Source: Escherichia phage fDHCT2. From it: 64,000 nucleotides of DNA. The notes under the pieces are model-generated. The model saw only the letters and a list, made by a program, of their open reading frames with translations, had not been told where the DNA came from and did not search any database. The translations under genes were made by a program, and so were the position numbers. Positions within the stretch are counted from its first letter, which is position 1; the number at the start of each line of letters is the position of its first letter. Where the stretch lies: the sequence record OR427838.1, one strand, 5' to 3'. This document shows positions 2,316 through 40,000 of the stretch, piece by piece.

Positions 2316-2493
2316 AGAGTTTAGCTAAAGGCCAAGTCACAATAGAAACTATTCCAAATAAAGCAAGCACCGGCCAAATAAAGGTAGCGAATACTGCTTC
2401 GCCACCTGAGCTAATTTCCATATGTTTGCGGCCAATCAGAACAGTAATGAATCCTAATGCAAGGTACAGAAGAATAAAACCTGCGATTTCCAT
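2293..2493 (-). CDS. small membrane protein (two hydrophobic helices)
   Basis: 66-aa ORF, strongly hydrophobic. Confidence 0.5.
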   Translation of the reverse strand: MEIAGFILLYLALGFITVLIGRKHMEISSGGEAVFATFIWPVLALFGIVSIVTWPLAKLYEKLFGL

Positions 2494-2495
2494 AA

Positions 2496-3335
2496 TTAAT
2501 CCTTAAGAAGATTTAGGATATCGATATATTTCTGACGTTCGGCCTTAGCTTTAGCATTCAGACCAGAGAGTCGGAAAATCTCATCATCTTGTTGCTGAAT
2601 TGTAACATTCAAGCAAGTAAGCAAATTGCTAAAATACTCGATTTGAGCTTGATGTTTCTCATTGCTGCGCACTGGTACAGGTTCTGGTTTAGGAGCTTCT
2701 GGGTGCTCTTCAGCCAGGTCTTTAATTTTATAAAGTTTAATACGCTGACCTGCTCCAGTTTCGGCATCACCAAAACTAAGAACACCGCGGCATTCCAGTA
2801 CAGACAACGCCAAACGAAGATGGAATTTCCAGTTTTCGTATTGACATCCACTAAAAGAAGAAATACTGTATTCACCTTCATTTTGACCTTTAATAACATT
2901 AAATAGTTTATAATCTAAAGAATTATTGGTTTTAAATGTCATTTGTTTATCAAGACCTTTTGCAAGTCGAGCACCAAGAGCCAGTAGACGTCGTTGGTTG
3001 GCATGAAGGTCTTGAACAACTTCGTCAAATGACATCACCGGGATTAAACGACCATAAAGGTCGTAGCCTTTGTTATAATTTTTAAGAATAATTTTGGCAT
3101 TAGCACGAGACAACATACCCGTTTTACGAAGAGTTTTCATGACTCGGTCTTCTAACGTAAACGAACCTTTAGTCTTGTCAAAGATTTTAGTGAAGTCATC
3201 TTTAACAGTACAAACGTTGAACTTGTCCCACATCATATATAGAACCTTTTCAACTACTTCTTTAGAACTCGGAATACGACCAAATTTAACAACTTTTTTA
3301 ACTTCAGAACGAATTTGATTAATTGCCTGTGACAT
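2496..3335 (-). CDS. hypothetical early/middle protein (279 aa)
   Basis: ORF with GAGGAAA SD upstream; MotA-box/TATAAT promoter at 3361-3400. Confidence 0.6.
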   Translation of the reverse strand: MSQAINQIRSEVKKVVKFGRIPSSKEVVEKVLYMMWDKFNVCTVKDDFTKIFDKTKGSFTLEDRVMKTLRKTGMLSRANAKIILKNYNKGYDLYGRLIPVMSFDEVVQDLHANQRRLLALGARLAKGLDKQMTFKTNNSLDYKLFNVIKGQNEGEYSISSFSGCQYENWKFHLRLALSVLECRGVLSFGDAETGAGQRIKLYKIKDLAEEHPEAPKPEPVPVRSNEKHQAQIEYFSNLLTCLNVTIQQQDDEIFRLSGLNAKAKAERQKYIDILNLLKD

Positions 3336-3360
3336 AATAATTTCCTCAGTAAGTAATTAA

Positions 3361-3400
3361 GAACCTAGAACCATTATACCATCCTTGGTATAAAGCGTTT
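3361..3400 (-). promoter_or_regulatory. middle-type promoter (MotA-box-like CGCTTTA, -10 TATAAT)
   Basis: Minus strand: CGCTTTA-12nt-TATAAT-GGTTCTAGGTTC upstream of ORF 2496-3335. Confidence 0.45.
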
Positions 3401-3923
3401 ATGCGAGAACCGTCTTTAAACGCTCTTCAAATTTCTGAAGCAGAGCTTGGCGTTCAGCTCGTTGTGATTTGTACTGCTCGATACGACCTGAAGTGAGGGC
3501 GTACTGTTCGTTTACTGATTCCCGCATGAATTCAGGAATCTCTTTACAAGCTTTGATTTCGTCAAACTTATCAATAACAGCTTGTTGTTCAGCAATCAGA
3601 TTATCGAAATAAGCGATATCAGATTTAACGTTTGCCAGGTCGGATTCAGTAGGCATTAAACGTTTGTTACGTTCAGCTTGATAAGCTTGATTGTTTTCAC
3701 GACTCCAGTGAAGAGTACGTTTTTTGTTAGTGTTTTTATAGAGCTCTACAATACCAACTGAATCGATGACTGCAATCCAGTTCCAATGGCTTTTGTAAAT
3801 CTCTCCTCCAGATACGGTAATCTCATTACCACAAGCAACATCGTTAAAGAACTTGCTTTGTTTTTCAGATTTGAAATTACCGTTGTTGAAATTAATCAGT
3901 GAAAAAATATCTTTAGCGTTCAT
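3399..3923 (-). CDS. hypothetical early protein (174 aa)
   Basis: ORF with GGAGG SD and early promoter at 3950-3978. Confidence 0.6.
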   Translation of the reverse strand: MNAKDIFSLINFNNGNFKSEKQSKFFNDVACGNEITVSGGEIYKSHWNWIAVIDSVGIVELYKNTNKKRTLHWSRENNQAYQAERNKRLMPTESDLANVKSDIAYFDNLIAEQQAVIDKFDEIKACKEIPEFMRESVNEQYALTSGRIEQYKSQRAERQALLQKFEERLKTVLA

Positions 3924-3949
3924 GATAACCTCCAGTAGTTGATAGGTCT

Positions 3950-3978
3950 ATAGTATCATTTCTACTGGAGATGTAAAC
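3950..3978 (-). promoter_or_regulatory. early promoter (sigma70-like; -35 GTTTAC, -10 TACTAT)
   Basis: Minus-strand GTTTAC-17nt-TACTAT followed by conserved TAGACCTATCAA and GGAGG SD. Confidence 0.65.
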
Positions 3979-3980
3979 AA

Positions 3981-4322
3981 CTAATAAAAACTTTTTTCAC
4001 CTGCTTGCCCACTAAACCATGCGGATTGAGTGTTCTCTTTCCGTTGGTGTTTAATACGAATAAGGTATTCGTTCCTGATGGCGCAGAGTTCATCTCTGAA
4101 GTCGACTGCCAACTTAACCTGCTTACGGTCTAGATTTATTAAGGCCTGGGTCTTCGCGGCCAAGGCCAGTCTCTTGTAGTCTCCTTCTTCACAATCGGTT
4201 TTGTAAACCTTCTCGGCGAATTGGTGTTTAAATTCATTATCATAGTCTTCAATAGACTGTTTCATGGCATTAGAGTATTTCAACTCTGCTTTTATAAGGT
4301 CATAACTAAATTGTTCGAACAT
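3981..4322 (-). CDS. hypothetical protein (113 aa)
   Basis: ORF in compact minus-strand gene array. Confidence 0.5.
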   Translation of the reverse strand: MFEQFSYDLIKAELKYSNAMKQSIEDYDNEFKHQFAEKVYKTDCEEGDYKRLALAAKTQALINLDRKQVKLAVDFRDELCAIRNEYLIRIKHQRKENTQSAWFSGQAGEKSFY

Positions 4323-4332
4323 AATTTCACCT

Positions 4333-5313
4333 TTATTTCAGAAGTGTAACTTCAGCGATTTCGCTCCAGTCATTTTTATCGGTGGCAATGAAGTCCGCCA
4401 GATAAAGAGCCGTACGTAATGATACGTTACGAAGACGAGATACATTGGCCTTCATCCATGCTAGAGCTTGATAAGTCTCAGCATCAGTCAGACCTCGGTT
4501 TTGCATCATATCAGTGGACAGGATAACGTCTTCAACACGAACCATAATCTCTTCATTCGAGTGAACTCCGAGGTCTAAGTAAACTGAACGAGATACTAAA
4601 GCCTGGAGGTGTGGAGCAAGTTTAGTGCCACGTTCTAATTCACGGTCAATATCAACGTTGGTGATGAACACGATGGTGCCTTCATATTCGAATTCTTTAT
4701 CGATATTTTTATCATCGAGGTAAGAACTTGAAGTGCTCCAGCACACCTTACGTTTTTCACCGGTATCCAATGCCGCTTTTAACAGGTTCAGGATATCCAT
4801 ATCAGAGAATACATCGACATCATCGATAAGAAGAACACTATTAGGGCCGCGGTTATTCCAAAGCTGCTCGTAAAGACCGATTCCACTAATCTTTCCGTTG
4901 ATTGATTTATATTCGATAGTTTCATTTTCGTGGGCATTCTGTAATGCTTTATCCAAAGAATACGTTTTACCAATACCTGCGGCACCAGAGATGATAAGGG
5001 AACGAATTTTACCATCGATGATTCCGTTAGTCATCATGTTCATTACTTTAAAACGTTTGTTGATGCGGTGTTTCATTTCTTCAGCGGATTCAGTAACCAC
5101 TACAGGAGCTTCAGCACCTTCCATTTCAACATCACATTTGAACACCCATATACCACGTTCAACACCATCAATCTGTACGAATACCTTACCATCACCGAGG
5201 TGAGCTTCGGATTCATGAATTTTGTTAGGGAACCAGGTTTTACCTGAACTCATGAACGTACCAGAGATTTCATTACCGCGATAGATACCTTTGTTGATTT
5301 TGATAGTTAACAT
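4333..5313 (-). CDS. P-loop NTPase (Walker A GAAGIGKTYS, Walker B LLIDDVD)
   Basis: ORF trimmed to ATG 5313 (MLTIKINKG) with GGAG SD and early promoter 5351-5379; Walker motifs read from translation. Confidence 0.6.
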   Translation of the reverse strand: MLTIKINKGIYRGNEISGTFMSSGKTWFPNKIHESEAHLGDGKVFVQIDGVERGIWVFKCDVEMEGAEAPVVVTESAEEMKHRINKRFKVMNMMTNGIIDGKIRSLIISGAAGIGKTYSLDKALQNAHENETIEYKSINGKISGIGLYEQLWNNRGPNSVLLIDDVDVFSDMDILNLLKAALDTGEKRKVCWSTSSSYLDDKNIDKEFEYEGTIVFITNVDIDRELERGTKLAPHLQALVSRSVYLDLGVHSNEEIMVRVEDVILSTDMMQNRGLTDAETYQALAWMKANVSRLRNVSLRTALYLADFIATDKNDWSEIAEVTLLK

Positions 5314-5350
5314 TATATTCTCCGTTTCACTCAGTAGATTTGATAGGTCC

Positions 5351-5379
5351 ATAATAACATGCTCTACGAGGTTGTAAAC
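5351..5379 (-). promoter_or_regulatory. early promoter (-35 GTTTAC, -10 TATTAT)
   Basis: Same architecture as other early promoters in window. Confidence 0.6.
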
Positions 5380-5394
5380 ACTTTTTTGCACTAA

Positions 5395-5420
5395 ACCCAA
5401 AAAAGGACCCCGAAGGGTCC
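5395..5420 (-). terminator. rho-independent terminator (GGACCCTTCGGGGTCC + U-run on minus strand)
   Basis: GC hairpin with UUCG loop followed by T-run in transcript sense. Confidence 0.6.
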
Positions 5421-5644
5421 TAAATTGCGCTCCAATAATTATGGAAGCGGATATTATTGATAGCCCAGTTAATACAACGTCTTATCTGCTTAGTCGTAGG
5501 CTTGCATACGTACTTGAAATTGATTCTTCTACCGGTTTCTCTACAAACTACTTCAAGATACCAACGACAGGTTTTATGAGGTCTTCCATATGACAGGAAA
5601 ACCTTGATTTCTTCTTTAACGGTAATAAGAGTTGTGGTTGTCAA
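5420..5644 (-). CDS. small Cys-rich protein (74 aa)
   Basis: ORF between NTase gene and terminator hairpin; weak. Confidence 0.35.
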   Translation of the reverse strand: MTTTTLITVKEEIKVFLSYGRPHKTCRWYLEVVCRETGRRINFKYVCKPTTKQIRRCINWAINNIRFHNYWSAI

Positions 5645-6626
5645 GATACACCTCTTCGACGAACTTGTCCCAGAACTTCATGTCCACCTTCGCAGGCATA
5701 CCGTTCTTAGCAGCCCAGATGGCATTAGTTTCGACTTCATCAACTATAGCTTCAAGTTCAGCCTGCACATCTTTAAAAGCATGTAACCCCTGTTTGATTT
5801 CAAGGATAAATGGCGCAGTACGTAAAGGGTATTGAAGGTCACCAGTTTGATAGATTTCCTTCAACTGGTATCCGGCCCTATAAGCATGACTCAGAGCTTT
5901 CCAGTCAATACCTTCATTGGCTTCTGCCTTACGAGCACGTTCACCATATTCGGCGTCAAGCTTATTCAGAGATTGCTTGAGCTCGATTAATGACAAAGTA
6001 GTCTGATATTTACGTCCGAGAACAGTATAGAACGTTTGTGGGCCTGTTTTCTCATGGTTATGGAATACCCATTCACAGAATTCGTTTTCAGGGAGTCGAT
6101 GTTTGATATCTTCTACCTTAGTGCGACGTTGTTTAGTGGAACCATCTTCTTGATAATCGACCCACTGTTCAGGAATCTGGTTAACAATTGCCAGTACACC
6201 ACGTAAAGCGGCCAGACGAGAACCTTTAACACCATATTTAGAAGCTTGCTTACGGACGTACCCTAAATAGGCTTTCATGTTGGTTGTATAGAAACGCGAA
6301 CGGTTGTCTTGGATAAATTTCCATACGTCAGGTAAATCAGATTTAACCACCATTTCAGGTGGGGTGTGGAGCATATCCAGAGCAACGGTTTCGCCATCAG
6401 CAGCCAGTTTAAAGAAATATTTCAGGCTATAAAGCTCATGGTCAACATCATCTTTAGTGTTTTTGGAAGCAGTGTTATTCGTGTTCAGGTTGGTATGGTT
6501 CATAGCCGTACCTAACAGAATATCACGCGGATGTGGAACAAAGATTTCTTTAAAATCGATATCAGATTCCGGAGTACTTGTTCCATAAAGGTGGCTACCG
6601 AAGTAGCCTTTCATAACTGTTCTCAT
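5616..6626 (-). CDS. nucleotidyltransferase-fold protein (GSHLYGTSTPESDIDF motif)
   Basis: Pol-beta-type NTase signature GS-x9-DxD near N-terminus; start ATG 6626 overlaps upstream stop as ATGA. Confidence 0.6.
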   Translation of the reverse strand: MRTVMKGYFGSHLYGTSTPESDIDFKEIFVPHPRDILLGTAMNHTNLNTNNTASKNTKDDVDHELYSLKYFFKLAADGETVALDMLHTPPEMVVKSDLPDVWKFIQDNRSRFYTTNMKAYLGYVRKQASKYGVKGSRLAALRGVLAIVNQIPEQWVDYQEDGSTKQRRTKVEDIKHRLPENEFCEWVFHNHEKTGPQTFYTVLGRKYQTTLSLIELKQSLNKLDAEYGERARKAEANEGIDWKALSHAYRAGYQLKEIYQTGDLQYPLRTAPFILEIKQGLHAFKDVQAELEAIVDEVETNAIWAAKNGMPAKVDMKFWDKFVEEVYLDNHNSYYR

Positions 6627-7075
6627 TCTTTGTTCTCGAAGTGGATTACAGGACACATCTTAGATTTACGAGCTTTAATGTATTGAATAACGATATTTTC
6701 TTTAGTTTCTCGGCCTTCACGCTCAGCTTGAATACGTTGCCATTCCTTTTCTTCTCTACGGGCATCATACCATGCGTGTAAATTCATCGCACCAAATGCC
6801 AAACCAATGGATAGCGCAATAATAAGAGCTATTGCAATCAACCCTAAAACAAACCCTAGACTCAACAGAACAGGAGTACTTAATACAAAGAAATGCTCTA
6901 ATACACCAGCTCCTGCAACAGTTAATCCAAAAAGCGTACTACCTGCAACAACAGCACAAGCAAAACAAGCCCAAATCATTTTCCAGAAATATGCACATAA
7001 AGAGTGTGGTCGAGAATGGCTGTCATAAAAATGGTCGTGTAATTTAACGTGCCAAGAGTTTGAATTGATAATCAT
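6623..7075 (-). CDS. integral membrane protein (150 aa)
   Basis: Long hydrophobic stretches followed by basic C-terminus. Confidence 0.55.
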   Translation of the reverse strand: MIINSNSWHVKLHDHFYDSHSRPHSLCAYFWKMIWACFACAVVAGSTLFGLTVAGAGVLEHFFVLSTPVLLSLGFVLGLIAIALIIALSIGLAFGAMNLHAWYDARREEKEWQRIQAEREGRETKENIVIQYIKARKSKMCPVIHFENKE

Positions 7076-7085
7076 AATATTTTCC

Positions 7086-7646
7086 TTAAGAGTTCATAGT
7101 TGGGATAACAGAGTTCAGATAAGAGACTAAAACTTTTAGCTCGTCTTTAGTAAATACAACTTCACTTTCACCGTCATGTCTTTGGACAATGGACAACAAA
7201 TCACGACCCTGATGTTGATACACGGATAATTCGGTATCATAATCCAGTTCTTCTTCATCACCTTCAAATGTTTCACTAGAACGAATTACAGCATCTTGTC
7301 CAGGGACTTTCCATTCAACTTCTGGCTTGCATTCTTCCTGGAAGAGTTTGAAAATACATTTAAAGAAATTACTAGAATCGCTAATGCTTAGGCATTCCGT
7401 ATCAGTTTCGATATTAAACCCGTTGTCATGGTTATAAATCTGGGCCCACATATCATCATTAATATCAAATACACCTCTAAAACTACCATTAAGATATTCG
7501 TGTTTGTCCAAAACCTTTAAATCGTAAAGTGGTTTGATATCTTGGATAGTCAGTACGATTTTATCGTCTTCTTGTGAAAGCACAATTGCATTATCAACTA
7601 CTTCAGCGGTCAGGTCACCAAACAGCCCAGATGTTTCAATAATCAT
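7086..7646 (-). CDS. acidic hypothetical protein (186 aa)
   Basis: ORF, D/E-rich. Confidence 0.55.
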   Translation of the reverse strand: MIIETSGLFGDLTAEVVDNAIVLSQEDDKIVLTIQDIKPLYDLKVLDKHEYLNGSFRGVFDINDDMWAQIYNHDNGFNIETDTECLSISDSSNFFKCIFKLFQEECKPEVEWKVPGQDAVIRSSETFEGDEEELDYDTELSVYQHQGRDLLSIVQRHDGESEVVFTKDELKVLVSYLNSVIPTMNS

Positions 7647-7656
7647 TTTCCGTTCC

Positions 7657-7839
7657 TCATTTCACATTTTGTTTAATAAAATTTAACAACTCTTTAAGAG
7701 CTTCATCTTCTTCTTTAGAAAGCCTGCTGCATTCACTAGCTGGGTAATCATTGCAAAACGCAGTTTCAAATCTAGCAACTGTACCTGCATAGGCCTCGAT
7801 AAGCTCTTCAAGCTTTAAATGTTTTTCTTCGGTTTTCAT
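7657..7839 (-). CDS. small hypothetical protein
   Basis: 60-aa ORF in array. Confidence 0.4.
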   Translation of the reverse strand: MKTEEKHLKLEELIEAYAGTVARFETAFCNDYPASECSRLSKEEDEALKELLNFIKQNVK

Positions 7840-7842
7840 AAA

Positions 7843-8109
7843 TCACCGGTTATGTTTTAAAATACTATAAAGCTCTTCGACCTGGCTCGCATTCAGACAA
7901 ATCATATCATTTTCTTGTTGGAGCGTAATTCCACCTTTTTCTTCCCAATCTTTAACAAAGATGTCATCGTCAGATTCTTCAACATCTGCCAAGAGGACAA
8001 TAATACCGTCTTCAGAATTACCACTTGGGTCGTATAACATTACAGTTTCCTCGCTAACCATGAAAAGAATAAACCAATTAAAACAGGCCCTATAAGCATT
8101 GTTAACCAA
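7843..8109 (-). CDS. small acidic hypothetical protein
   Basis: 88-aa ORF; true start may be internal. Confidence 0.4.
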   Translation of the reverse strand: MVNNAYRACFNWFILFMVSEETVMLYDPSGNSEDGIIVLLADVEESDDDIFVKDWEEKGGITLQQENDMICLNASQVEELYSILKHNR

Positions 8110-8159
8110 GCCCAGGGTTCTAAGTAATAAATCATCTCATACTCCTGTGCCATCAGCCA

Positions 8160-8342
8160 TTATGCTTTCAACTCATTAAGATACTCAACCAATGCAGCTT
8201 TAGAATTAGCCAAATCTCGTTTACACTGCTCTATTCCGGAATATGAATAGCCTTCACAATATTCAACGGCCAGGTCATTGGATGCGTTTTCAATGTGCTG
8301 GGCGAGTTTAAGGATTTGTTCAATCTGTTCAGTAGTTAACAT
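8160..8342 (-). CDS. small hypothetical protein
   Basis: 60-aa ORF. Confidence 0.4.
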   Translation of the reverse strand: MLTTEQIEQILKLAQHIENASNDLAVEYCEGYSYSGIEQCKRDLANSKAALVEYLNELKA

Positions 8343-8346
8343 AATA

Positions 8347-8583
8347 TCACCAGTATTTGTTGATAGTAGAAATTAATTCTTGGGCTTGGGTGGTTTTCAG
8401 TTTACATCCACAACCCTTTAATGTGTCTTTAAGGAGCCACGGTTCCTTGAGCTCGCCCTTTTCTAGACGAATTCTGTATCCTCGATAATCAGCGAAGATA
8501 CTTCGGTCGTCGAATATCTTAATCTCAAGGATACGACCGTTGATTTCATATTCTAATGAAACCGTAGTACTTGTAAGTTTCAC
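8347..8583 (-). CDS. small hypothetical protein (GTG start)
   Basis: 78-aa ORF with GGAG SD and early promoter 8612-8640. Confidence 0.5.
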   Translation of the reverse strand: MKLTSTTVSLEYEINGRILEIKIFDDRSIFADYRGYRIRLEKGELKEPWLLKDTLKGCGCKLKTTQAQELISTINKYW

Positions 8584-15888: not shown

Positions 15889-16377
15889 TTATCTATAAGC
15901 AGCCCAAGTACCTGTTTTAAATGTTGAAATCACGCGCTTAGCACGATTAGGAGTTTGTTTATACCAACGGGATTGAGCCAGGTTAACTGCGGCATCATCC
16001 CAACGTTTCTGTTGGAGCATACGCAGAGAGTTGGTAAATCCTGCTACACCAGCTTCGCCCATTTGGAAGACCATGTTAATTAAAGCACAACGACGAACTT
16101 CGTCCAGCACATCATAAACAGGTTTCAATTTAGGATTACGCAGAATAGCTCTACGAGCATTATCAACCGACCGGTTAAAGAGTTGTTCTGCTTCAGCCAT
16201 AGTAATACGACCATTACAAACTCGACCCATAAGCTTATCAAGTTCAGCGCGGGCAACATCTTTAGATGGGTTCTTGGTAACTAACTGGCCAATACCAATA
16301 GTCCAATAACCTTCAGTGTCTTTATAAAGATTTAAATCAAGACCTTCGTCTTGACGTAACATATCAAAAATATCCAT
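15889..16377 (-). CDS. e: endolysin, T4 lysozyme family
   Basis: [13 protein letters not shown]...[15 protein letters not shown], about 75% identity to recalled T4 lysozyme. Confidence 0.95.
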
Positions 16378-25418: not shown

Positions 25419-25493
25419 TGGTATCCCGCCCTGGGATCGAACCAGGACCGCAAACTTAGAAGGATCGTATGCTATCCATTACACCAGCGGGAC
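25419..25493 (-). tRNA. tRNA-Arg (anticodon UCU), CCA encoded
   Basis: Manual fold: acceptor GTCCCGC/GCGGGAT, D-loop AATGGATA, anticodon loop CTTCTAA, T-arm CCTGG-TTCGATC-CCAGG, 3' ACCA. Confidence 0.75.
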
Positions 25494-25498
25494 ATAGT

Positions 25499-25575
25499 TG
25501 GTGACCCGGACCAGATTTGAACTGGTAACCTTTCCCTTATGAGGGGACTGCTGCTAACCATTGAGCTACAGGGCC
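25499..25575 (-). tRNA. tRNA with anticodon CAU (Met or lysidine-modified Ile), CCA encoded
   Basis: Manual fold: acceptor GGCCCTG, D-loop AATGGTTAG, anticodon loop CTCATAA, T-arm ACCAG-TTCAAAT-CTGGT, 3' ACCA; one acceptor mismatch. Confidence 0.65.
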
Positions 25576-30618: not shown

Positions 30619-30626
30619 TATAAATA
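30619..30626 (+). promoter_or_regulatory. late promoter TATAAATA (genes 53-5...)
   Basis: Exact T4 late promoter octamer 28 nt upstream of gp53 ATG. Confidence 0.7.
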
Positions 30627-30633
30627 TTAATAT

Positions 30634-30641
30634 TATTTATA
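30634..30641 (-). promoter_or_regulatory. late promoter TATAAATA (divergent, genes 4-2-3)
   Basis: Exact octamer on minus strand 27 nt upstream of gp4 ATG. Confidence 0.65.
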
Positions 30642-30653
30642 CTCGGAGGCCCT

Positions 30654-31256
30654 ATGCTCTTCTCATTTTTCGATCCTATCGATTACGAATCAAAAACAGT
30701 CAAGCCGGATTCGGGCTCATTAACAAATGCCGATGTACTGAGCGTGCCGATGACTGATATATTTAGAAATTATAAAGAATATTTTGATAAAGTGGCTAAA
30801 AACTATACACTAAAGACTTATTATATCAACGGGGCCCCACGCCCTGAAGAATTAGCCCATCAACTTTATGGTAATGTCCAATTATATTGGGTTTTATTGA
30901 TGTGTAATAATGTATACGACCCTTATTACGGCTGGATTACAGGCCAAGAAGTCGCATATCAAGCGGCAATCCAAAGATATTCTACTGCAGGTGGCAATCA
31001 AGTTCTTTATCATGTTAATGAAAAGGGTGAGAAATTCTGGAATCTTGTTAATACTCCAGAAAACCCATATACTTGGTATGATAAAGGTGATACAGAAAAA
31101 CGTTATCCTCAATATGAGGGCCCTTTGGCTGCAGTAGATATTTACGAGGATGCTATTCGTAAAAATGAATATAAGCGCGAAATAAAGATTGTAGACCCTA
31201 ATGATATTGAGTCCTTTATTTCTGCCCTTATTCGCGAAATGGAGAAAGCCCTCTAA
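30654..31256 (+). CDS. 53: gp53 baseplate wedge protein
   Basis: 200 aa, directly upstream of gene 5, late promoter at 30619-30626. Confidence 0.7.
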   Translation: MLFSFFDPIDYESKTVKPDSGSLTNADVLSVPMTDIFRNYKEYFDKVAKNYTLKTYYINGAPRPEELAHQLYGNVQLYWVLLMCNNVYDPYYGWITGQEVAYQAAIQRYSTAGGNQVLYHVNEKGEKFWNLVNTPENPYTWYDKGDTEKRYPQYEGPLAAVDIYEDAIRKNEYKREIKIVDPNDIESFISALIREMEKAL

Positions 31257-33043
31257 TGATTAACATGTCTGATAATGTAAGTTGGTTCGTCGGTGTAGTT
31301 GAAGACCGAATGGACCCGCTCAAACAAGGCCGAGTACGTGTACGCGTATGGGGTATGCATCCCTATGAAAAGGTACAAGGCCCTGTAAAAGGTCTTCGTA
31401 CAGAAGATTTACCATGGATGTCGGTATTAATGCCTACATCTTCGGCCTCTGTTTCAGGTATACAAACCGCTATGACCGGTATGGTCCCAGGTACACAAGT
31501 TTATGGCCACTTTCTTGATAAGTGGAAATTAAACGGACTTGTCCTCGGTACATACGGTTCTGCATCAAAACAAAAAGCAAACCCTAATGAAGGTTTTAGC
31601 GACCCAACAGGCCAATATCCACTTTATTTAGGTAACGATGCCGCTGCACTAAACCGAGGTGGTGAAGTTGGATATGATGCCACTTCTAACGTAATCCAGG
31701 ATTCTAACCTAGATTTAGGTATTAATCCTGACGGTTTAGATTTAAGTCAAGTCAAGCCTGACGATAATCCTAATTTCACAATAGAAAACATGCTTCACCG
31801 TGATGAAGGGCTTCGACTGAAGGTATATTGGGACACCGAAGGTTATCCTACTATCGGTATAGGTCACCTTATTACGCCACAACCTATTAGAGATATGAAC
31901 CAAATAAACAAAATATTGTCTAAACAAATAGGTCGAGAAGTTAAAGGTAACCCTGGTGCAATATCAATGGACGAGGCTTCTAAATTATTCCAAGAAGACC
32001 TTAAAAAAGTCCAAAGCGATATAGGTCGACATAGTGTTGTGGGTCCGGTTTACAATAAAGAAAACCGTTCAAGACAAATGGCTCTTGAAAACATGGCTTT
32101 CCAAATGGGTTTAGGTGGGCTTGCTAAATTCCGTGGTATGCTCAGTGCTATGCTAATAGGCGATTATAAAAAGGCATTTGAGGAAGCTCGTAATTCAGTG
32201 TGGTTCAACCAAACTAAGGGCCGTGCATCAAGGGTATCAATGATTATCCTTACAGGTAACATGGAATCATACGGTATTATGGCCCCTAAAGAAAGGTCAT
32301 TTAAAGGGCGTTCGTATAGAATGATTCAAACTTTTGCCGCACCTGCAAATTCAGACCCAGCCGACCCATGGACCCCAGAAGATACAAGGATTCTGTTTAA
32401 AGAGCCAGAATCAAGTTACAAGGGCGAATATCCTTACGTGCAGACAATGCAAACTGAAGGTGGGCATATCCAAGAATTCGATAACACCCCAGGGCAAGAA
32501 CGTTATCGTTTAATCCATCCTACAGGTAGTTATGAAGAAGTTGCTCCTGATGGCCGCAAAACTTCTAAGACGGTAGCCGATGGTTATTATATGACCCAAG
32601 GCGATTCTAATACTTATGTCGGCGGTAATAATAAAGTCAACATAGGCGGTGATGAAACATATTATAATATGGCTAACGTTCGCCGTCAGACCGACGGAAA
32701 CGAAAGCATTCATATTCGAGGGAATGAAACCAAAACTGTAGAAGGTAATGGAACTCTGCTTGTTAAAGGAAATGTTAAAATAGTTATTATGGGTACTGCT
32801 GATATAACTGTTGAACAAGAAGCATATATTACGGTTGAAAAAGATACAACAGTTAATGTCAACCAGAATGCAGATATAAGCGTTAAACAAAAGGCCACAA
32901 TCAATGCTCAAAATATGGATGTAAATGTCGAACAAGATTTAAATTTTGCAGCGACGAACATTAATTTAAACGCATCAAATACTGTGCATATGGATGGCGG
33001 TTCATTAGCTAAAGTATCTGGTGGCAACGTACAGGTCGGTTAA
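31256..33043 (+). CDS. 5: gp5 baseplate central spike with lysozyme domain
   Basis: Internal lysozyme motif LHRDEGLRLKVYWDTEGYPTIGIGHL and C-terminal beta-helix repeats. Confidence 0.9.
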   Translation: MINMSDNVSWFVGVVEDRMDPLKQGRVRVRVWGMHPYEKVQGPVKGLRTEDLPWMSVLMPTSSASVSGIQTAMTGMVPGTQVYGHFLDKWKLNGLVLGTYGSASKQKANPNEGFSDPTGQYPLYLGNDAAALNRGGEVGYDATSNVIQDSNLDLGINPDGLDLSQVKPDDNPNFTIENMLHRDEGLRLKVYWDTEGYPTIGIGHLITPQPIRDMNQINKILSKQIGREVKGNPGAISMDEASKLFQEDLKKVQSDIGRHSVVGPVYNKENRSRQMALENMAFQMGLGGLAKFRGMLSAMLIGDYKKAFEEARNSVWFNQTKGRASRVSMIILTGNMESYGIMAPKERSFKGRSYRMIQTFAAPANSDPADPWTPEDTRILFKEPESSYKGEYPYVQTMQTEGGHIQEFDNTPGQERYRLIHPTGSYEEVAPDGRKTSKTVADGYYMTQGDSNTYVGGNNKVNIGGDETYYNMANVRRQTDGNESIHIRGNETKTVEGNGTLLVKGNVKIVIMGTADITVEQEAYITVEKDTTVNVNQNADISVKQKATINAQNMDVNVEQDLNFAATNINLNASNTVHMDGGSLAKVSGGNVQVG

Positions 33044-33044
33044 T

Positions 33045-35108
33045 ATGAATTACTACGATAAAGTTGATGAAGTGGTAGGGACTGTAACAAGTCCCTGTGA
33101 TGACGCAGTAGGACCTGGTGAATATCGCCGGGTTAAATGGGAATTATATAACCCAACAGGTGCTTTTATTCAACCCGGGAATGGCGTTGAATGGGATACC
33201 GAGATTATTCCACTAGCTACACATTTATACACACAAAATCCATTTGGTAATAAGTCCGAAACTTTTCCTGCACCTCCCCCGCCGGAAGATGGAACAAGTC
33301 AAGGTATCTGGTGTGCTAAACTCGGAATATTCTTTATTACGCAATTGGATTTAGAAAATTATGTAGAATCGATTGGTGCAACTCTTTTGCCCGGTAATGA
33401 TTGGTACGGCGCTGATTTATCAAAATCTGTATTGTATAAAACATCTATTGAATATGATATGTATCGCATCGAAAACTGTGGCGGTGTATGGACGTCACAA
33501 GGCCCCAGAATGGACCCCAGGACGATGATTGCAGTTACGGCTGATTATCATATGTATGTCAACTTTAACGGCCTTGGTGACTCCCGCAGGGCTTATTTGA
33601 AGTACTATGAGACAAAACCTTGTACTTATGTTGGACTGGTATTAAATCTAGATGTTGATATGAGTATCCCAGGAACTCCGATTCCAGGACCGGTATCCAT
33701 CGGGTCTTTACCACCAGAAATAACCGGGCGAGCCAGGGCAATAAGCTGTGTTCCTTTTACAGCGGAATTCCCTTACAACGGATTGACCAATGCGATTATG
33801 GCTTCATGGAATACATCTAGGAATTCATTCAAATTATATTGGGATATGCTCCCTGGATGGCCATCATCTGGTGGAACCGATTGGGAAAAATTCTTCGATT
33901 CCGGTTATAGTAAGCTATCGGTCGCAATGGAAGAGCTAGGCAACTCAGCTGTTGCTATGTGTCAATATGTTCAGCAAATGGCTTTTCTTGCATTTAAAGA
34001 TGCCATATCACAGGTCTTGGATATTGTTGGTGGTGGGTGGGACTTACTTAAAAGCTTTTTACCCTCGATTACTATTATGGGCATGACTATTGACCTGGAA
34101 GACCTCTGCACTTCAGGTGATGGTGTACAGAAATTAAAAGAAGCATGGAAAAACTTTAATTTAGAAGAAACCATCCAATCGATTTATTCTGCCATTGGGT
34201 CGGCATACGATTATTCGGTTGAACGCGTCAAGATGTATTCGCGTGACCTTATTGATGCAATTACAGATTTGTATGACTGGGCCTGGTCTCAATTGCTTAT
34301 GGCTGGTGTTGCATTATCAAAACTGTGTGTAGACCTCGCTCAAATATGGAGTATGCCTCCTATAGTTCCGAACCCAGTTTGGAGCGTTATTACTGCGGTC
34401 AAGGAAATGATGAAGCAAGTTAAACCACTGGACATGATAATGAGCGGTAACTTTCCAGGATTCACAGCATCAGATGTTTATCAAATGGTTATGGAAAAGG
34501 TAGACCAGAAAATAGACGAAGCTTATGCAATGATTGAGGCTCTTAAAACCCAGGCACTCAATCTGTGGAATGAGATTAAGCTCAAAAAGCAAGAAGTACA
34601 AAAACAAGCTATTGAATTTAAACAATATCTTTCAGGAATGTACGAAAAAGTTACAGACGAGCTAACTGCTCAGAAGGAAGCCGCATTAGCACAAGCTGAA
34701 GCTGCACTTGAACTTTTAAAGAATAAATATAAACAGATTAAGAACTCTATTACCGAAAGTCAAACCTCCGTTTCTGATGTATTAGATATGGCTTTAGAAG
34801 AATTCAAAAAACTTCCTATTGTGGCTCAAATGGAAGAACTTCTCGGTATGCTCGGAGCTACTGTAGATGATATCATGGTTATATACGAGAACTCAGTAAC
34901 TAAAGCAAAATCTTTATATCACGAATTTACTGATGGTTCCAGGTCAATGAAAGACTTGTGCAAATCAATGTATAACCAAATATCAACATTATCCTTAAGT
35001 AAGGTGGTACAATGGATTAATAAGATGCTGGGAATATTCGGTTTAACGATTGCATTTCCATCCCTTTCCATTTGCATACCTTGTTTAGAATCTCCTACTA
35101 GGAATTAA
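33045..35108 (+). CDS. large hypothetical protein (687 aa) between gene 5 and gene 6
   Basis: ATG 2 nt after gp5 stop, ends 1 nt before gp6 ATG; Pro-rich N-terminal region, coiled-coil, hydrophobic Cys-containing C-terminus. Confidence 0.7.
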   Translation: MNYYDKVDEVVGTVTSPCDDAVGPGEYRRVKWELYNPTGAFIQPGNGVEWDTEIIPLATHLYTQNPFGNKSETFPAPPPPEDGTSQGIWCAKLGIFFITQLDLENYVESIGATLLPGNDWYGADLSKSVLYKTSIEYDMYRIENCGGVWTSQGPRMDPRTMIAVTADYHMYVNFNGLGDSRRAYLKYYETKPCTYVGLVLNLDVDMSIPGTPIPGPVSIGSLPPEITGRARAISCVPFTAEFPYNGLTNAIMASWNTSRNSFKLYWDMLPGWPSSGGTDWEKFFDSGYSKLSVAMEELGNSAVAMCQYVQQMAFLAFKDAISQVLDIVGGGWDLLKSFLPSITIMGMTIDLEDLCTSGDGVQKLKEAWKNFNLEETIQSIYSAIGSAYDYSVERVKMYSRDLIDAITDLYDWAWSQLLMAGVALSKLCVDLAQIWSMPPIVPNPVWSVITAVKEMMKQVKPLDMIMSGNFPGFTASDVYQMVMEKVDQKIDEAYAMIEALKTQALNLWNEIKLKKQEVQKQAIEFKQYLSGMYEKVTDELTAQKEAALAQAEAALELLKNKYKQIKNSITESQTSVSDVLDMALEEFKKLPIVAQMEELLGMLGATVDDIMVIYENSVTKAKSLYHEFTDGSRSMKDLCKSMYNQISTLSLSKVVQWINKMLGIFGLTIAFPSLSICIPCLESPTRN

Positions 35109-35109
35109 A

Positions 35110-37068
35110 ATGGCTACTCCTACGAATTACCAATTAACAAGAACCGTTAACGCTATCCCAAAAGTATTTGTGGGAGCTACGTTTGAAGAAATTAAAAAGA
35201 ATATTATAGACTGGCTTTCTAGCCAGGACGAATTTAAGGATTATGATTTCGTTGGTTCTCGAATGAATATCCTTATTGATATGCTTGCTTATAATACCCT
35301 TTATATGCAGCAATTTGCTAACACCGCTTTATACGAATCTTTTATAGGAACTGCAAACCTTCGTTCTTCGGTTGTCCAGGCTGCACAAGATAATGGATAT
35401 CTTCCTAGTTCTAAATCCGCGGCAAAAACTTCCGTAATGCTTACGTGTACTCAGGCCCTTAATGAAAAGAATATTCGTATTCCACGTGGTACTAAATTCT
35501 TGGCTTATGCTCGTGATACTTCAGCCGATCCATATGCCTTTGTGACCACTGATAACGTTATTGCAGTGCGTGACGTTAATAACCAGTACTGGCCCATTGT
35601 TTCTCTGGCTCAAGGACGTATTATTCGTACCGAACTTAAATACGACCCTAAAACTCCTATTCTTATTCGTGACCCGGATATTGATAGACAAGAAGTTAAA
35701 CTTTATGTTGATGGGGCAGAATGGATTAACTGGACCGATAAATCAATGGTTCACGCTGGTAGCACCTCGACAATTTACTATATGCGCGAAACCGTAGATG
35801 GTAATACTGAATTCTTCTTTGGTGAGGGTGAAGCCGAGAAATCTGTTGCAGGCGGAGTATTAGAAGCTAATTATATCGGCGGTCTAAAACCTGTTAAAGA
35901 TTCTACCATTGTTATAGAGTACCTTCGTACAGACGGTGAAGTTGCAAACGGTGCAGTTGACTTCAGTTATGCTGACTCCTTGGCTTATATTACTGTAGAA
36001 AAAATTACTGAAAACTATAACGACGACCCCGATTATGTGGGTGCTGACGGTGGTGGTGACCCTGAAGATATTGAACGTATTCGCGAATTAGCCGTAGTTA
36101 AGCGTGAAGCCCAGATGCGTGCTGTAACAGGAACCGACTATGATACATTCGTATCTGAACGTTTTGGCTCTATTGTACAAGCAGTACAAACCTTTACAGA
36201 CCCAAATAAACCAGGTTATGCTTTTGTCACCATTAAACCTAAATCAGGGCTATATTTGACAGCCGTCCAACGTGAAGACATCCAAGACTACCTAAAAGAA
36301 TTTAACTTAGCCCCTATTACCGCTTCTGTTATTTCTCCTGATTATTTGTTCTTAAAGCATAAAATTAAGGTATCATATGCCTTGAATAAATTACAGGAAT
36401 CTGAACAGTGGCTATCGGCTCAAATTCTTTCTCAGATAGACCGCTATTATATTAACGAAGTAGAAATTTTTAACCACGGATTCGCTAAGTCAAAAATGCT
36501 GACTTATATTGATAATGCTGACCATAGTATTTTAGGCTCCTCTGCTACCATAACAATGGTTCGTGAGGTATTGAACTTTTTCAAAACCCCTGAATCAGGT
36601 ATTAAATACTATAATCAATACACCAACCGTTCTGTGGTTTCTAGTGAATTTGAGTTTGTCCCTACTATCGTTTCTGAAGACAGTCCGGCGTATAATGTCA
36701 GAATTGCCGCTACAGATAAAGACGAACGTGGTGATGGTAAAATGGTTATTGGTCCTTTCCGACCAGGAGATGTAATTGAAAACCAATATATTAAACCATA
36801 TACAGGAAATGACTTTGATAAAATGCCTGCTCCTGCAGACCAATCCGTTTATTACGTTATAGGTGAAATTGATTATTATTCAGATTTCATTTTCTGGGAC
36901 ATTGCGGCTATCGGTTTAACGTCCGATCGTTTTGAAGTTCAATCTATAGAACTTTATGCGGGACCTGACCAAGACAACATCTTTACAAAAGACGGTTCGT
37001 TAATCGTATTTGAAGATGACCTCCGCCCTCAATACACGACCATTGAATTAGAACCTATTACAATATAA
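35110..37068 (+). CDS. 6: gp6 baseplate wedge protein
   Basis: 652 aa (T4 660), synteny. Confidence 0.8.
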   Translation: MATPTNYQLTRTVNAIPKVFVGATFEEIKKNIIDWLSSQDEFKDYDFVGSRMNILIDMLAYNTLYMQQFANTALYESFIGTANLRSSVVQAAQDNGYLPSSKSAAKTSVMLTCTQALNEKNIRIPRGTKFLAYARDTSADPYAFVTTDNVIAVRDVNNQYWPIVSLAQGRIIRTELKYDPKTPILIRDPDIDRQEVKLYVDGAEWINWTDKSMVHAGSTSTIYYMRETVDGNTEFFFGEGEAEKSVAGGVLEANYIGGLKPVKDSTIVIEYLRTDGEVANGAVDFSYADSLAYITVEKITENYNDDPDYVGADGGGDPEDIERIRELAVVKREAQMRAVTGTDYDTFVSERFGSIVQAVQTFTDPNKPGYAFVTIKPKSGLYLTAVQREDIQDYLKEFNLAPITASVISPDYLFLKHKIKVSYALNKLQESEQWLSAQILSQIDRYYINEVEIFNHGFAKSKMLTYIDNADHSILGSSATITMVREVLNFFKTPESGIKYYNQYTNRSVVSSEFEFVPTIVSEDSPAYNVRIAATDKDERGDGKMVIGPFRPGDVIENQYIKPYTGNDFDKMPAPADQSVYYVIGEIDYYSDFIFWDIAAIGLTSDRFEVQSIELYAGPDQDNIFTKDGSLIVFEDDLRPQYTTIELEPITI

Positions 37069-37096
37069 GCCTCTTAGGAGGCTTTGAGGAGATTTA

Positions 37097-40000
37097 ATGT
37101 CTGTGCAAGCGCCTTCCGTTACTAGTTTGAGAATTGATAAACTCTCGGCTAACCATGTAAGTATTCTTTGGGATGACGTAGGCGCCAATTTCTATTATTT
37201 CGTAGAACTGGCCCAAACCAAGGATGCGGGTGAATCTATACCCGATGATAAGTTATTTTGGAGAAATTTAGGTTACACCCCGAACAATAACTGGTTCGAA
37301 GAAAGATTTATTTCTCCTAATTCGTTTTATAAAATGCGTGTCGCTGTAGCTGCTCAAGGATTTGAACAATCTGAATGGGTTTATACAGAAGAATTCGAGA
37401 CATTTTCTACTAACGCATATACCTTCGAGCATATGCGTGAATTTACTTTATCCAATAAATTCATTGAAGAAAAATTTACCAAAAATAACCAGAGTTACGT
37501 GGATTTTAATAGTGACGCTATTATGGCCTCTATGATGTCCGAAGATTTTACTTGGACTCCGGCATATTCACACCTTTCTTCAATTTCTAATTATGTATTA
37601 AAGGCTGACCGCTTCCATGAGATTCAAGGAAGTATCCAAGCTGTTTGTAAAGACCCTAATCGTTCTATTTTAATGGAGCTTGGTGGTGTACTTTACCTTT
37701 TAGAAAGATTCCAGAACACAGCTAAGGTATCTAACGACAAAGCTCAAAACTGGCACTATATTCGTTTGTTTAATGACCGAGTAGGTAATCCAGTTTCACG
37801 TACGGCTCATTATCAAACAGACACCACAACTTATGTTTTAGGTTATGACCGTATATTTTACGGACGTAAATCGAGCGATATCAGATGGTCTGCTGATGAT
37901 GTACGTTTTAGCTCACAAGACGTGACATTTGCTAAAATTGGTAGTGATATCGACCTTGATTTTGAAATTGAAATTTTTGGTTCTTATGCACGTTTACCAT
38001 TAGCTATTTCTACTATCTCAGAAGCTATGTGTGCTTCGGACGATTTTATTTACGTTGCAGCCCGTGATAGAGTTTACAAAGCAAAAACTACTGACGCCCC
38101 TATTGACACCGACCCAGGTTCTCCTACTTACGGTGAGAAAATATTTGAAAGCGGATATTCGACTATAACCGGTAACCCTAAAGCAGTTTGTTATAAATTA
38201 GATTCAATCCAAGGAAATACCTTTGCCTTAATTACAGGTGAAGTTAAAGAAGAAAGAATGGACCCTACTAAAGAAGAAAACGTGGTTGATTCTGAATCTA
38301 AAGGTGTTTATTGGTTGGATGCCGAAACCGATACATGGACCAGAGTATTTGGTAACACTGAAGAAGAGAGACGTCGTATTGAGCACGGGTACACTAGCAT
38401 GTCTACCGATGGCGAAGAAATATTCTTTAGCTCAAGTAACTTCAAATATGAAGTAGAAGTTGATAACGAATTACCTTTAGAATACCCTATTGTGGCCTCA
38501 GCGGTAAAATATGTTAAGGACGAACAGTGGATTCACGATAAACATTATCTGATGATGAGCTTTAGAGCTAACAGTAAGTCAGATTTTAAAGAATTCAAAC
38601 CTGGTCGAATGGCCTATTATGCTGAACCATTCTTTAGTTGGTCTAGACGCGACGGGACCCGTTCTTGGATTACCACAAGTAATCATGCAATGGTTGTTTA
38701 TAACGATGCCTTATACCAGAAAATTATTGATTTAAACAGTGGTTCTTCTCCTGAACGTATTATTCATGAAATTTGGGATAAAGGCTTTTGTACTGTAACA
38801 TGCCCTAACATTGAATTCAGTGGATTTAAAAAATATTCCTCGGGTATCATGATTCACAAATCATCAGGTGAATTGGTTGGATATTTCGAGTTCGACTACC
38901 GAGTTCGAGATGAAGTTAGAATAATTTGGAAGCCTAAAGAAATAATGTTTACGGCTGAACTCCAAAACCAAGAGCATGAAATTCCATGGACCCCTAAAGA
39001 GGAAACTGGTGAACAAGACCCTGATTTGCGTCCTTTATTGGTTAAAATGGTTCCCGATAGTTATTTGCTTCAAGATTCTAACTTTGAAAAATTCTGCGAA
39101 TATTATCTCCAGTTTATTAGTGATGGCTCCGGTACCCATTATAATAATCTATTAAATCTTATTCGTAACCAATATCCTAGAGAAGAAGATGCATGGGAAT
39201 ACTTATGGTCTGAAATCTATAAACGCAATATCTATTTGTCTAAAGAAAAACGCGACGAAGTAGTTCGTTTCTTCCAAGCAAGACAATCGGATTTCTGGTC
39301 TACAAAAGGTACCGAAGCTTCATATAAATTCCTGTTTAAATTACTTTATAACGAAGATGTTGAAATTGACATCGAGTCCAAGAACTCGATTGAATATGAT
39401 ATCATCGTAGAATCTGACAATATCAGTGAAGATATCGTGGGCCAAACGATTTATACTCCTACAGGAAGAAGTAATGTTACTTATATAGAACGAAATTACA
39501 AAGAGGGTAAATTGCAATGGCGTTTAACCATTCACAATCTTTTAGGCCGTTTTATAGTAGGACAAGAGATTAAATCTGAACGCACCTCATTTAAAGGTAT
39601 GATAGTGCAGGGTGTACGCGGTAAAGAATTGTTAAGTAACAATATCGATTATATTAACCGTAACCGTTCTTATTATGTTATGACTATTAAATCCAACCTC
39701 CCTACTTCTCGATACCGTAATGACGTGTTGAGATTTGTCCACCCTGTAGGATTTGGCTTTATAGGGATTACGTTGCTTTCTATGTTTGTTAACGTTGGTT
39801 TGACATTAAAGCACACGGAAACCATTATTAATATACTTAAGAACTATAAGTGGGACTCAGGTCTTCCATCCGAGTGGTACGATAGAGTTGCTGTAATCGG
39901 ATTTGATGGTAATATAGAAAGAGACCCTAGAACAGGACTTCCGGTTTATAACGTTGGGCCTAAAGCAGGCGAACCGTTCCCTATTCCTAATGATTATGAT

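Follow-up and report, generated by a model that had tools for sequence, protein, structure and literature searches.

A large, probable non-PAAR spike tip protein encoded at the gene 5.4 locus of Escherichia phage fDHCT2 and other T4-like phages

The window analyzed here is a 64,000-nt stretch of DNA from Escherichia phage fDHCT2 (OR427838.1), a T4-type coliphage of the genus Dhakavirus (JS98-like). Between gene 5, which encodes the spike protein gp5, and the baseplate wedge gene 6, the window carries an open reading frame (ORF) of 687 amino acids (aa) at 33045 to 35108 on the plus strand, with its ATG at 33045 and its TAA at 35106 to 35108. The product of this ORF probably forms the tip of the central tail spike; it would be a mostly helical, non-PAAR protein standing in for gp5.4 of phage T4 and, probably, for gp5.1 too. 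A first-pass annotation, made from the sequence alone, had proposed a virion protein riding on the spike, and we retain this as the best reading on the strength of orthology, exclusivity with gene 5.4, and linkage to the C terminus of gp5. The spike tip idea itself is already published for the orthologue in phage RB43 (PMC12407873) and for gp203 of phage Helios (PMC13611949). New here are the exclusivity of the two tip genes across a whole collection of phage records, the cassette formed by the gp5 C terminus and the tip gene together with its junctions, the natural pairs in which one tip has been swapped for the other, and a family member in a different genus.

The ORF matches RB43 and RB16 by tblastn with 43% identity over 99% of the query. 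Because the matched RB43 gene is RB43ORF205w (AAX78727.1; 44.8% global identity over 690 and 687 aa), the ORF is an orthologue of a gene whose product was already proposed as a non-PAAR spike tip. Mattenberger et al. (bioRxiv 2025), writing from the Leiman and Belin groups, report in a preprint that RB43, RB16, and Lw1 lack gene 5.4 and that the locus of genes 5.1 to 5.4 is taken by orf205w, which encodes ∼690 residues arranged as an alpha/beta mixture in residues 1 to 220 and as helices beyond (PMC12407873). Their cryo-electron microscopy (cryo-EM) map of the RB43 baseplate at 17.7 Å contains a T4-like spike bearing a larger object at its tip, for which orf205w was put forward as the candidate. 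The same work found T4 gp5.4 to be dispensable for assembly and required on hosts with deep-rough lipopolysaccharide (LPS) (PMC12407873). The report on Klebsiella phage Helios (Viruses 2026) describes a large protein in place of 5.1 and 5.4 in some Straboviridae; an AlphaFold3 (AF3) model of the gp5 trimer with Helios gp203 combines a gp5.4-like hydrophobic interface with a core built as a triple coiled coil and a loop at the distal end (PMC13611949). The Helios authors state that the function of gp203 is not experimentally established, their evidence being modeling only (PMC13611949).

T4 gp5.4 had no tblastn match in the window, the ORF included, and none in WG01, a close relative with the same tip locus, when its complete genome was searched (best E value, 0.16). 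The gp5.4 protein is detectable in 1471 phage records, as distant as those of Campylobacter and Salicola phages. Exclusivity was assessed with three tblastn searches (E ≤ 1e-5) against a collection of 50,697 phage records. The ORF alone matched 215 records at 215 places, gp5.4 padded with X to 710 aa matched 1275 records at 1278 places, and a concatenated query of gp5.4 and the ORF (784 aa) matched 1490 records at 1493 places. The concatenated totals are the exact sums of the separate ones (215 + 1275 = 1490 records; 215 + 1278 = 1493 places), and 0/1490 records hold both the ORF and gene 5.4. The counts were also additive in five organism-name groups: Klebsiella (gp5.4, 161; ORF, 113; concatenated, 274), Escherichia (578, 26, and 604), Shigella (80, 3, and 83), Enterobacter (36, 20, and 56), and Salmonella (26, 4, and 30). 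This exact additivity is what two genes filling the same structural position would be expected to show, and the mutual exclusivity over 1490 records argues for the same role.

The second body of evidence comes from the boundaries of the exchanged DNA. Codons 1 to 520 of gene 5 (31256 to 32815, plus strand), which encode the OB and lysozyme domains and most of the beta-helix, are backbone sequence common to the Dhakaviruses with a PAAR tip. Codons 521 to 595 (32816 to 33043, plus strand) encode the end of the beta-helix (...SGGNVQVG), form the left part of a cassette, and presumably provide the docking surface of the ORF product. The right junction (35099 to 35112, plus strand) is the Shine-Dalgarno sequence and start of gene 6, AGGAATTAAAATG, which is identical in phages with either tip; AnYang, a Dhakavirus with 5.1 and 5.4, carries the identical AGGAATTAAAATG after its gene 5.4. 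DNA homology between the window and both AnYang and JS10 ends at 32815 (gp5 codon 520, approximately T4 residue 515) and restarts at 35099. At the protein level, gp5 of the window and of AnYang are 96.5% identical over aa 1 to 515 and 21.6% identical over the last 60 aa, where AnYang is 70% identical to T4 and its gp5 ends ...QYTIDGSRIDIG, exactly as in T4. Compared directly with T4, gp5 of the window is 66% identical without its last 60 aa and 25% identical within them. The ORF had been described in the first-pass annotation as an insertion into the T4 arrangement; instead, it takes the place of genes 5.1 to 5.4, and the final ∼75 codons of gene 5 have been exchanged along with them. That annotation's account of the T4 interval as holding only small ORFs is right in that 5.1, 5.3, and 5.4 are present and incomplete in that the homing endonuclease gene segC lies there too.

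The same exchange is found in a T4 background. Phage PD112 (Escherichia phage vB_vPM_PD112, NC_054928.1, locus 2153 to 8518), classified in Tequatrovirus, the genus of T4, has flanking DNA ∼96% identical to that of T4, with gp53 and gp6 above 99% (99.5% and 99.2% aa identity, respectively). Where T4 has 5.1, segC, 5.3, and 5.4, PD112 has a large tip ORF and the matching gp5 C terminus, which makes the two phages a natural swap. PD112 gp5 is 97.7% identical to that of T4 without its last 60 aa and 27% identical within them, and the same 60 aa are 88% identical to those of the window, where the tip ORF is 73% identical. DNA homology between PD112 and T4 ends at approximately gp5 codon 502 and restarts 10 nt ahead of the gene 6 ATG. 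Judged from these identities, the last ∼75 codons of gene 5 and the tip gene form one unit of inheritance in both the Dhakavirus and the Tequatrovirus backgrounds. The partner gp5 ends in (S/T)G(G/A)(N/T)V(Q/S/V)VG at all 21 other tip-ORF loci examined, the two most divergent included, and the PAAR-type gp5 ends in GSRIDIG. Because the ORF is co-inherited with exactly those gp5 residues that build the blunt beta-helix end, contact between the two proteins is strongly but indirectly supported; we infer the interface itself only from this co-inheritance.

The genus Dhakavirus is dimorphic at the tip locus. JS98, JS10, IME08, MX01, AnYang, C6, and VR5 have 5.1 and 5.4, and WG01, Bp7, SP18, PSD2002, E33, FB, CJ20, LHE83, and fDHCT2 have the large ORF. 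The cassette of the window (32816 to 35108) is 99.3 to 100% identical to that of WG01, with sharp transitions at both sides. Outside it, identity to WG01 falls to 90.7% for gene 53, 92.2% for the rest of gene 5, and 86.3% for gene 6; within gene 5, the DNA of codons 521 to 595 is 100% identical, versus 90 to 92% for the remainder. Gene 6 DNA of the window (35099 to 37100) is closer to AnYang, at 96.7%, than to WG01. Such a mosaic pattern of identities indicates that the cassette was recently transferred from one Dhakavirus lineage to another. Homing endonuclease genes occur in or near tip cassettes, namely, segC in T4 (6197 to 6619) and "mobE" in JS10 between 5.1 and 5.4 (3418 to 4032). One contig from IMG/VR has an extra ORF, starting MNYDRIYKALIDKRR just after position 5067, behind the tip gene and at the usual place of gene 6. 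The RefSeq annotation of gene 6 in AnYang (NC_055782.1, 3676 to 5691) overlaps gene 5.4 by 49 nt, and the conserved AGGAATTAAAATG start, also present in the window and JS10, lies ∼57 nt downstream; the annotated start is probably wrong.

Homologues of the ORF were found by tblastn in 215/50,697 phage records, full length in 213. With identities of 31 to 99% and eight clusters at 50% identity, these full-length homologues mark the ORF as a real gene. UniRef lists the identical protein under Escherichia phage fDHCT2, and the ORF DNA is 99.1 to 99.4% identical to that of PSD2002, E33, Bp7, WG01, FB, CJ20, LHE83, and SP18. Identity is ∼72% to PD112, F26, and BYEP01, 67% to Salmonella phage KM16 (Moonvirus), and ∼59% to Proteus phages PM2 and Pm5461 (Bragavirus). 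It is 42 to 45% to RB16, RB43, Lw1, and GAP161 (Pseudotevenvirus), KP15 (Slopekvirus), Matisse, Miller, and phiEap-3, a range that also covers many other Klebsiella, Enterobacter, Cronobacter, and Citrobacter phages. The suspicion that the ORF might be lineage specific is thus not borne out, given its homologues in several Straboviridae genera. PHROG 5296, whose function is not assigned, matches aa 1 to 682 of the 687 at E = 0. The order gene 5, ORF homologue, gene 6 holds in all seven annotated genomes inspected (among them RB43, PD112, KM16, PM2, KP15, and GAP161), and at 12 IMG/VR loci the end of gp5 lies 0 to 11 nt ahead of the ORF homologue.

When 1.84 billion representative proteins were searched with a profile of the family, eight full-length clusters at 50% identity, plus fragments, were recovered, with no members outside T4-like phages. 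The only other matches, to tape measures and apolipoprotein-like coiled coils, are confined to ORF residues 470 to 660. Because the search otherwise yields only matches to this helical region, the family is confined to T4-like phages. The most divergent members keep the pairing with gene 5. An ENA metagenome contig, scaffold_330 (237 to 4970), encodes a 764-aa member with 31% identity, in the order gp5 end, tip ORF, gp25, gp6, gp7, gp8; gene 25 therefore stands between the tip gene and gene 6, in contrast to T4 and the window. The JGI contig Ga0620835_007198 (219 to 1388) encodes a gp5 of just 389 aa whose sole precomputed Pfam match is the OB domain, with no lysozyme match; this gp5 ends FTGGTVVVG, and a 743-aa homologue of the tip ORF starts 4 nt further on.

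An AlphaFold2 (AF2) monomer model of the ORF product, built from a 55-sequence alignment, was confident, with a mean predicted local distance difference test score (pLDDT) of 86.7 and a predicted template modeling score (pTM) of 0.77. The N-terminal alpha/beta domain (aa 1 to 200; 33045 to 33644, plus strand) folds confidently alone, matches no solved fold, and contains many invariant aromatic, Gly, and Cys residues (C18, W50, W120-Y-G-A-D124, E143-N144, and C193). Conservation was scored by taking the frequency of the most common residue in each alignment column and averaging over the region. Three core helices are predicted on the plus strand: helix 1 (aa 294 to 328; 33924 to 34028; conservation, 0.66), helix 2 (aa 398 to 435; 34236 to 34349; 0.68), and helix 3 (aa 631 to 664), which together with a C-terminal strand (aa 673 to 682) spans 34935 to 35105 and is the most conserved part (0.78). 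The least conserved part (0.45) is a predicted antiparallel helical hairpin at aa 475 to 575 (34467 to 34769, plus strand; helices at 475 to 529 and 538 to 575), and it is preceded by a conserved segment at aa 436 to 474 (PPxVPNPVW ... GNFPGFTA; 0.74). This distribution is consistent with a core that is buried in the model and a distal element that is exposed and evolves fast; the hairpin presumably makes up that exposed, distal portion of the tip. Core helix 3 and the C-terminal strand may lie near the base that binds gp5. In the published AF3 models of Helios gp203, three helices form an intramolecular triple coiled coil lying on the axis of the spike; they are given as Phe287-Ile327, Glu398-Trp440, and Lys631-Ile670, the last of which is drawn beside the last strand of gp5 (PMC13611949, Fig. 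15 legend).

Foldseek searches with the model matched no solved fold (best E value, 0.17; TM score below 0.2), and a sequence search of the PDB returned one chance match, to Cas12m (E = 1.6). No PAAR family, such as PF05488, appeared among the Pfam matches of the ORF at E ≤ 0.1, and the predicted protein has no small conical beta fold with an apical His/Cys metal site of the kind found in PAAR tips. Subthreshold coiled-coil matches in Pfam, NCBIfam, and PHROG (DUF6565, LMBR1, TRIM_CC, and tape-measure PHROGs) were rejected as composition driven. The sequence features listed in the first-pass annotation are present: Pro-rich stretches at aa 75 to 83 (PAPPPPEDG) and 209 to 216 (PGTPIPGP) and a hydrophobic, Cys-containing C terminus at aa 663 to 681 (GIFGLTIAFPSLSICIPCL). 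The long coiled coil it placed at ∼480 to 560 is predicted to fold as the antiparallel helical hairpin.

The same helical and hydrophobic features would also allow a different use of a tip-located protein. It could be mainly a delivered, membrane-active protein, in which the amphipathic hairpin and the hydrophobic C terminus open after the outer membrane has been pierced and insert into a membrane, forming or extending a conduit for DNA or disturbing the inner membrane rather than merely sharpening the spike. At 687 aa versus the 97 aa of gp5.4, the ORF product is far larger than needed for capping a beta-helix. Its region 470 to 660 weakly resembles, in profile searches, helical parts of tape measures for which Pfam models of the apolipoprotein type also score (E = 2e-9 to 4e-4). 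Tape-measure families in PHROG are matched at E ∼ 1e-3, and hydropathy peaks at aa 662 to 681 (1.87) and 417 to 435 (1.51). These points are all compositional, however, and the Foldseek null result does not favor such a protein. The hydrophobic stretches are the most conserved ones and are modeled as buried core helices of a soluble bundle; the C terminus, taken in the first-pass annotation as possibly membrane associated, is modeled as the end of a core helix and an internal beta-strand, with no transmembrane helix. No toxin, enzyme, or pore-forming domain was recognizable in the ORF with Pfam, NCBIfam, or Foldseek, and nothing speaks for the injected effector that had also been suggested. 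The spike of phage P2, moreover, comes to lie in the periplasm, reportedly without piercing of the inner membrane (PMC12407873). We therefore regard delivery of a membrane-active protein as unlikely and a structural spike tip as the better description.

The weak coiled-coil matches also bear on the labels under which the family is stored. In every record inspected, members are called hypothetical or uncharacterized or "tape measure"; a few (H26, H58, H64, and H65) are automatically labeled "tail length tape measure protein" or "baseplate hub structural protein". Taken at face value, these few records and the matches to PHROG tape-measure families (E = 1.3e-3 and 4e-3) would make the ORF product a second tape-measure or inner-hub protein, one that resides within the tube or hub and leaves it together with the DNA on ejection. 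WG01, however, has an ordinary gp29 (ORF195, 578 aa) in a hub cluster with gp27, gp28, gp48, and gp54, ∼38 kb from the tip ORF. The best BLASTP alignment of the ORF with this gp29 has an E value of 0.054 over 37 residues, no tape-measure Pfam model matches, and the weak matches cover coiled-coil segments only. Neither exclusivity with gene 5.4 nor travel with the gp5 C terminus would be expected of such a protein. The tape-measure assignment was rejected as extremely improbable, with gp29 in its normal place in WG01 and without significant similarity to the ORF; a displaced gp27 or tape measure, which the first-pass annotation had named as the finding that would overturn it, is likewise contradicted by the usual position of both genes in WG01. 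The tape-measure and hub labels appear to stem from weak coiled-coil matches and are probably wrong.

Several observations weigh against a spike tip. Presence in the virion is putative, drawing on the RB43 map, the Helios AF3 model, and co-inheritance with gp5. We found no identification of a family protein by virion mass spectrometry in the literature on KP15/KP27, phiEap-3, slopekviruses (a preprint), and Morganella phage MP1. The portion of the MP1 proteome table that was available lists no protein between gp141 and gp147, which bears on the family only if MP1 carries the gene. The RB43 map cannot identify a protein, because its resolution is 17.7 Å and C6 symmetry was imposed. The RB43 authors did not obtain orf205w in complex with a beta-helix fragment of gp5 on co-production, and they themselves describe their AlphaFold confidence as low (PMC12407873). 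A tip of 76.7 kDa is ∼8 times larger than gp5.4, and there is no explanation for such a size. Finally, the padded gp5.4 query used for the exclusivity counts was 710 aa rather than 784 aa, so that borderline gp5.4 matches could shift, although the exact additivity argues otherwise.

Failure to find the protein in published proteomes would also be expected of a nonvirion assembly factor for the variant gp5 C terminus, that is, a chaperone or cap that acts while the beta-helix end folds and trimerizes and is released by the time the baseplate is complete. Dedicated nonstructural assembly factors, gp51 and gp57A among them, serve tail and fiber morphogenesis in T4. A dedicated chaperone, too, would be expected to travel with the final ∼75 codons of gene 5, and translational coupling of the ORF to gene 5 is probable. 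Strict exclusivity with the structural tip gene 5.4, by contrast, is better explained by functional replacement, and a large, conserved, well-folded 687-aa architecture with a fast-evolving surface hairpin is unusual for a chaperone. The RB43 spike also has extra density at its tip, with no gp5.4 in that phage to account for it (PMC12407873). A released assembly factor is accordingly improbable in our judgment, and the ORF product is better read as a component of the spike.

The setting of the ORF in the late region is well defined. Gene 5 encodes a 595-aa product with Pfam matches to Gp5_OB, Phage_lysozyme, and Gp5_C, and its TAA lies at 33041 to 33043; gene 6 (35110 to 37068, plus strand) has five gp6 Pfam domains and is backbone sequence downstream of the cassette. 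A single base separates the gene 5 stop from the ORF ATG, and another separates the ORF stop from the gene 6 ATG (35110), confirming the earlier observation that the ORF fills the interval between the two genes. An alternative GTG start at 33021 would give a protein of 695 aa overlapping gene 5 and is used by one database record (CJ20). The ATG at 33045 is favored because the MNY/MDY N terminus is kept across 55 homologues. From that start, the product has a mass of 76.7 kDa and a pI of 4.7. The G+C content of the ORF is 0.40, equal to that of the neighboring genes, and repeats, an internal promoter, or a terminator within the ORF were not detected above chance. A T4-type late promoter motif, TATAAATA (30619 to 30626, plus strand), lies upstream of gene 53, its promoter function being inferred from the T4 late-promoter consensus. 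Because no further late motif occurs on the plus strand until 41213, genes 53, 5, ORF, 6, 7, and 8 look like one late transcription unit, and because the ORF ATG is one base past the gene 5 stop, its translation is probably coupled to that of gene 5. The view that the ORF is a gene of the late operon tied to gene 5, and not a metabolic gene, is thus upheld by the motif at 30619 and by the cassette linkage.

Other features of the window are listed for completeness. The TATAAATA motif at 30619 to 30626 (plus strand) is accompanied by another at 30634 to 30641 (minus strand); the two point in opposite ways, 8 nt apart, within the 46 nt that separate gene 4, on the minus strand, from gene 53, on the plus strand. 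In all, the window contains 16 late motifs, versus 7.3 expected by chance. Two neighboring tRNA genes lie at 25419 to 25575 on the minus strand, tRNA-Arg (TCT) at 25419 to 25493 and tRNA-Met (CAT) at 25499 to 25575, as detected with ARAGORN and Rfam; the Rfam scan of the window returned these two tRNAs and nothing else. A second lysozyme-like gene, presumably gene e, is located at 15895 to 16377 (minus strand) and is 43% identical over 166 aa to the lysozyme domain of T4 gp5.

These results suggest how the ORF product may be made and used. It would be expressed late, on a transcript shared with genes 53, 5, 6, 7, and 8, with translation probably coupled to that of gene 5. During assembly, the helices at aa 294 to 328, 398 to 435, and 631 to 664 would form an intramolecular three-helix bundle that prolongs the axis of the spike, and the alpha/beta domain (aa 1 to 200) and the variable hairpin (aa 475 to 575) would complete a long tip. 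The product may bind gp5 directly, in one copy per virion. On contraction of the sheath, such a tip would be the first part of the virion to be driven into the outer membrane. By analogy with gp5.4, it may be dispensable for assembly and set the efficiency with which particular cell envelopes are penetrated; this role in penetration draws on the same analogy. Over evolutionary time, the cassette alternates with a PAAR-type counterpart that consists of the other gene 5 end, genes 5.1 and 5.4, and, in some phages, a homing endonuclease gene, with exchange occurring by recombination within the conserved flanks.

What the spike tip of a contractile tail does is only now being worked out. If the assignment is correct, a second, unrelated type of tip occurs in at least 215 sequenced phages, and PAAR proteins are not the sole solution. 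The hosts of these phages include Klebsiella, Enterobacter, Cronobacter, Citrobacter, Proteus, Salmonella, and Escherichia coli, and many such phages are candidates for therapy. Family members can now be annotated consistently as putative spike tips. Natural pairs with near-identical flanks, such as T4 and PD112 or AnYang or JS98 and WG01 or fDHCT2, differ at the locus essentially by the cassette, and tip function is therefore testable with ordinary T4 genetics. A broader proposal, which we put forward tentatively, is that the spike tip of T4-like phages is a horizontally exchanged, two-state module, with a PAAR tip plus 5.1 as one state and the large helical tip as the other, each state locked to its own gp5 C terminus. 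Rather than a passive point, the large tip might then be a new device for envelope penetration, with its fast-evolving hairpin engaging specific components of the outer membrane, LPS, or periplasm, and the choice of tip might determine which envelopes can be penetrated after adsorption. If this holds, T4 and PD112, which are 96 to 99% identical in the flanks of the cassette, a figure that does not extend to the whole genomes, would provide a direct genetic test of the two tips.

Among known systems, RB43 orf205w is the nearest to the ORF. Both genes occupy the slot between genes 5 and 6, gene 5.4 is missing from the RB43 genome and from the window, both products begin with an alpha/beta part and are helical throughout the rest, and RB43 gp5 ends ...TGGTVQVG, the same type of ending as in the window; the role of orf205w in RB43 is likewise a proposal. 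The two differ in that RB43 is a Pseudotevenvirus, whereas the window comes from a Dhakavirus (Tevenvirinae) with a much more T4-like backbone, and in that the gap to gene 6 is an 84-nt spacer in RB43 and 1 nt in the window. Polymorphism against 5.1/5.4 within Dhakavirus and Tequatrovirus is absent from the account in the RB43 preprint. Helios gp203 is, like the ORF product, a large protein at the position of 5.1/5.4, and its core helices coincide with aa 294 to 328, 398 to 435, and 631 to 664 of the ORF when compared by residue numbers.

More remote parallels exist in other contractile systems. The "evolved" PAAR proteins of type VI secretion systems (T6SS) and extracellular contractile injection systems (eCIS), which bear C-terminal effector domains, resemble the ORF product in concept, as a large extra polypeptide on the tip of an injection system; unlike them, the ORF product lacks PAAR, has no recognizable toxin or enzyme domain, and is restricted to T4-like phages. 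Phage P1, as summarized in the Helios report, has the PAAR protein UpfC plus three helical copies of UpfB, a "tripod" (PMC13611949, citing PMC12810830). Going by that summary, UpfB and the proposed ORF tip are functionally analogous, each being a helical extension past the spike tip of a contractile tail with a loop at its distal end. On the same description, P1 retains PAAR and uses three separate helical subunits, whereas the ORF would provide a pseudo-threefold bundle in one chain, without PAAR. T4 gp5.4, the PAAR tip of known structure (PDB 4KU0), is encoded, like the ORF, directly upstream of gene 6 in the same late operon, and both proteins are presumed to bind the blunt end of the gp5 beta-helix as monomers. 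The 97-aa gp5.4 is a small beta cone with an iron site of three His and one Cys; the 687-aa ORF product is mostly helical, has no evident equivalent of that site, and contains three His residues, none conserved in the family. The two proteins also differ in their partner, as the ORF product pairs with a gp5 C terminus unlike that of gp5.4-type phages.

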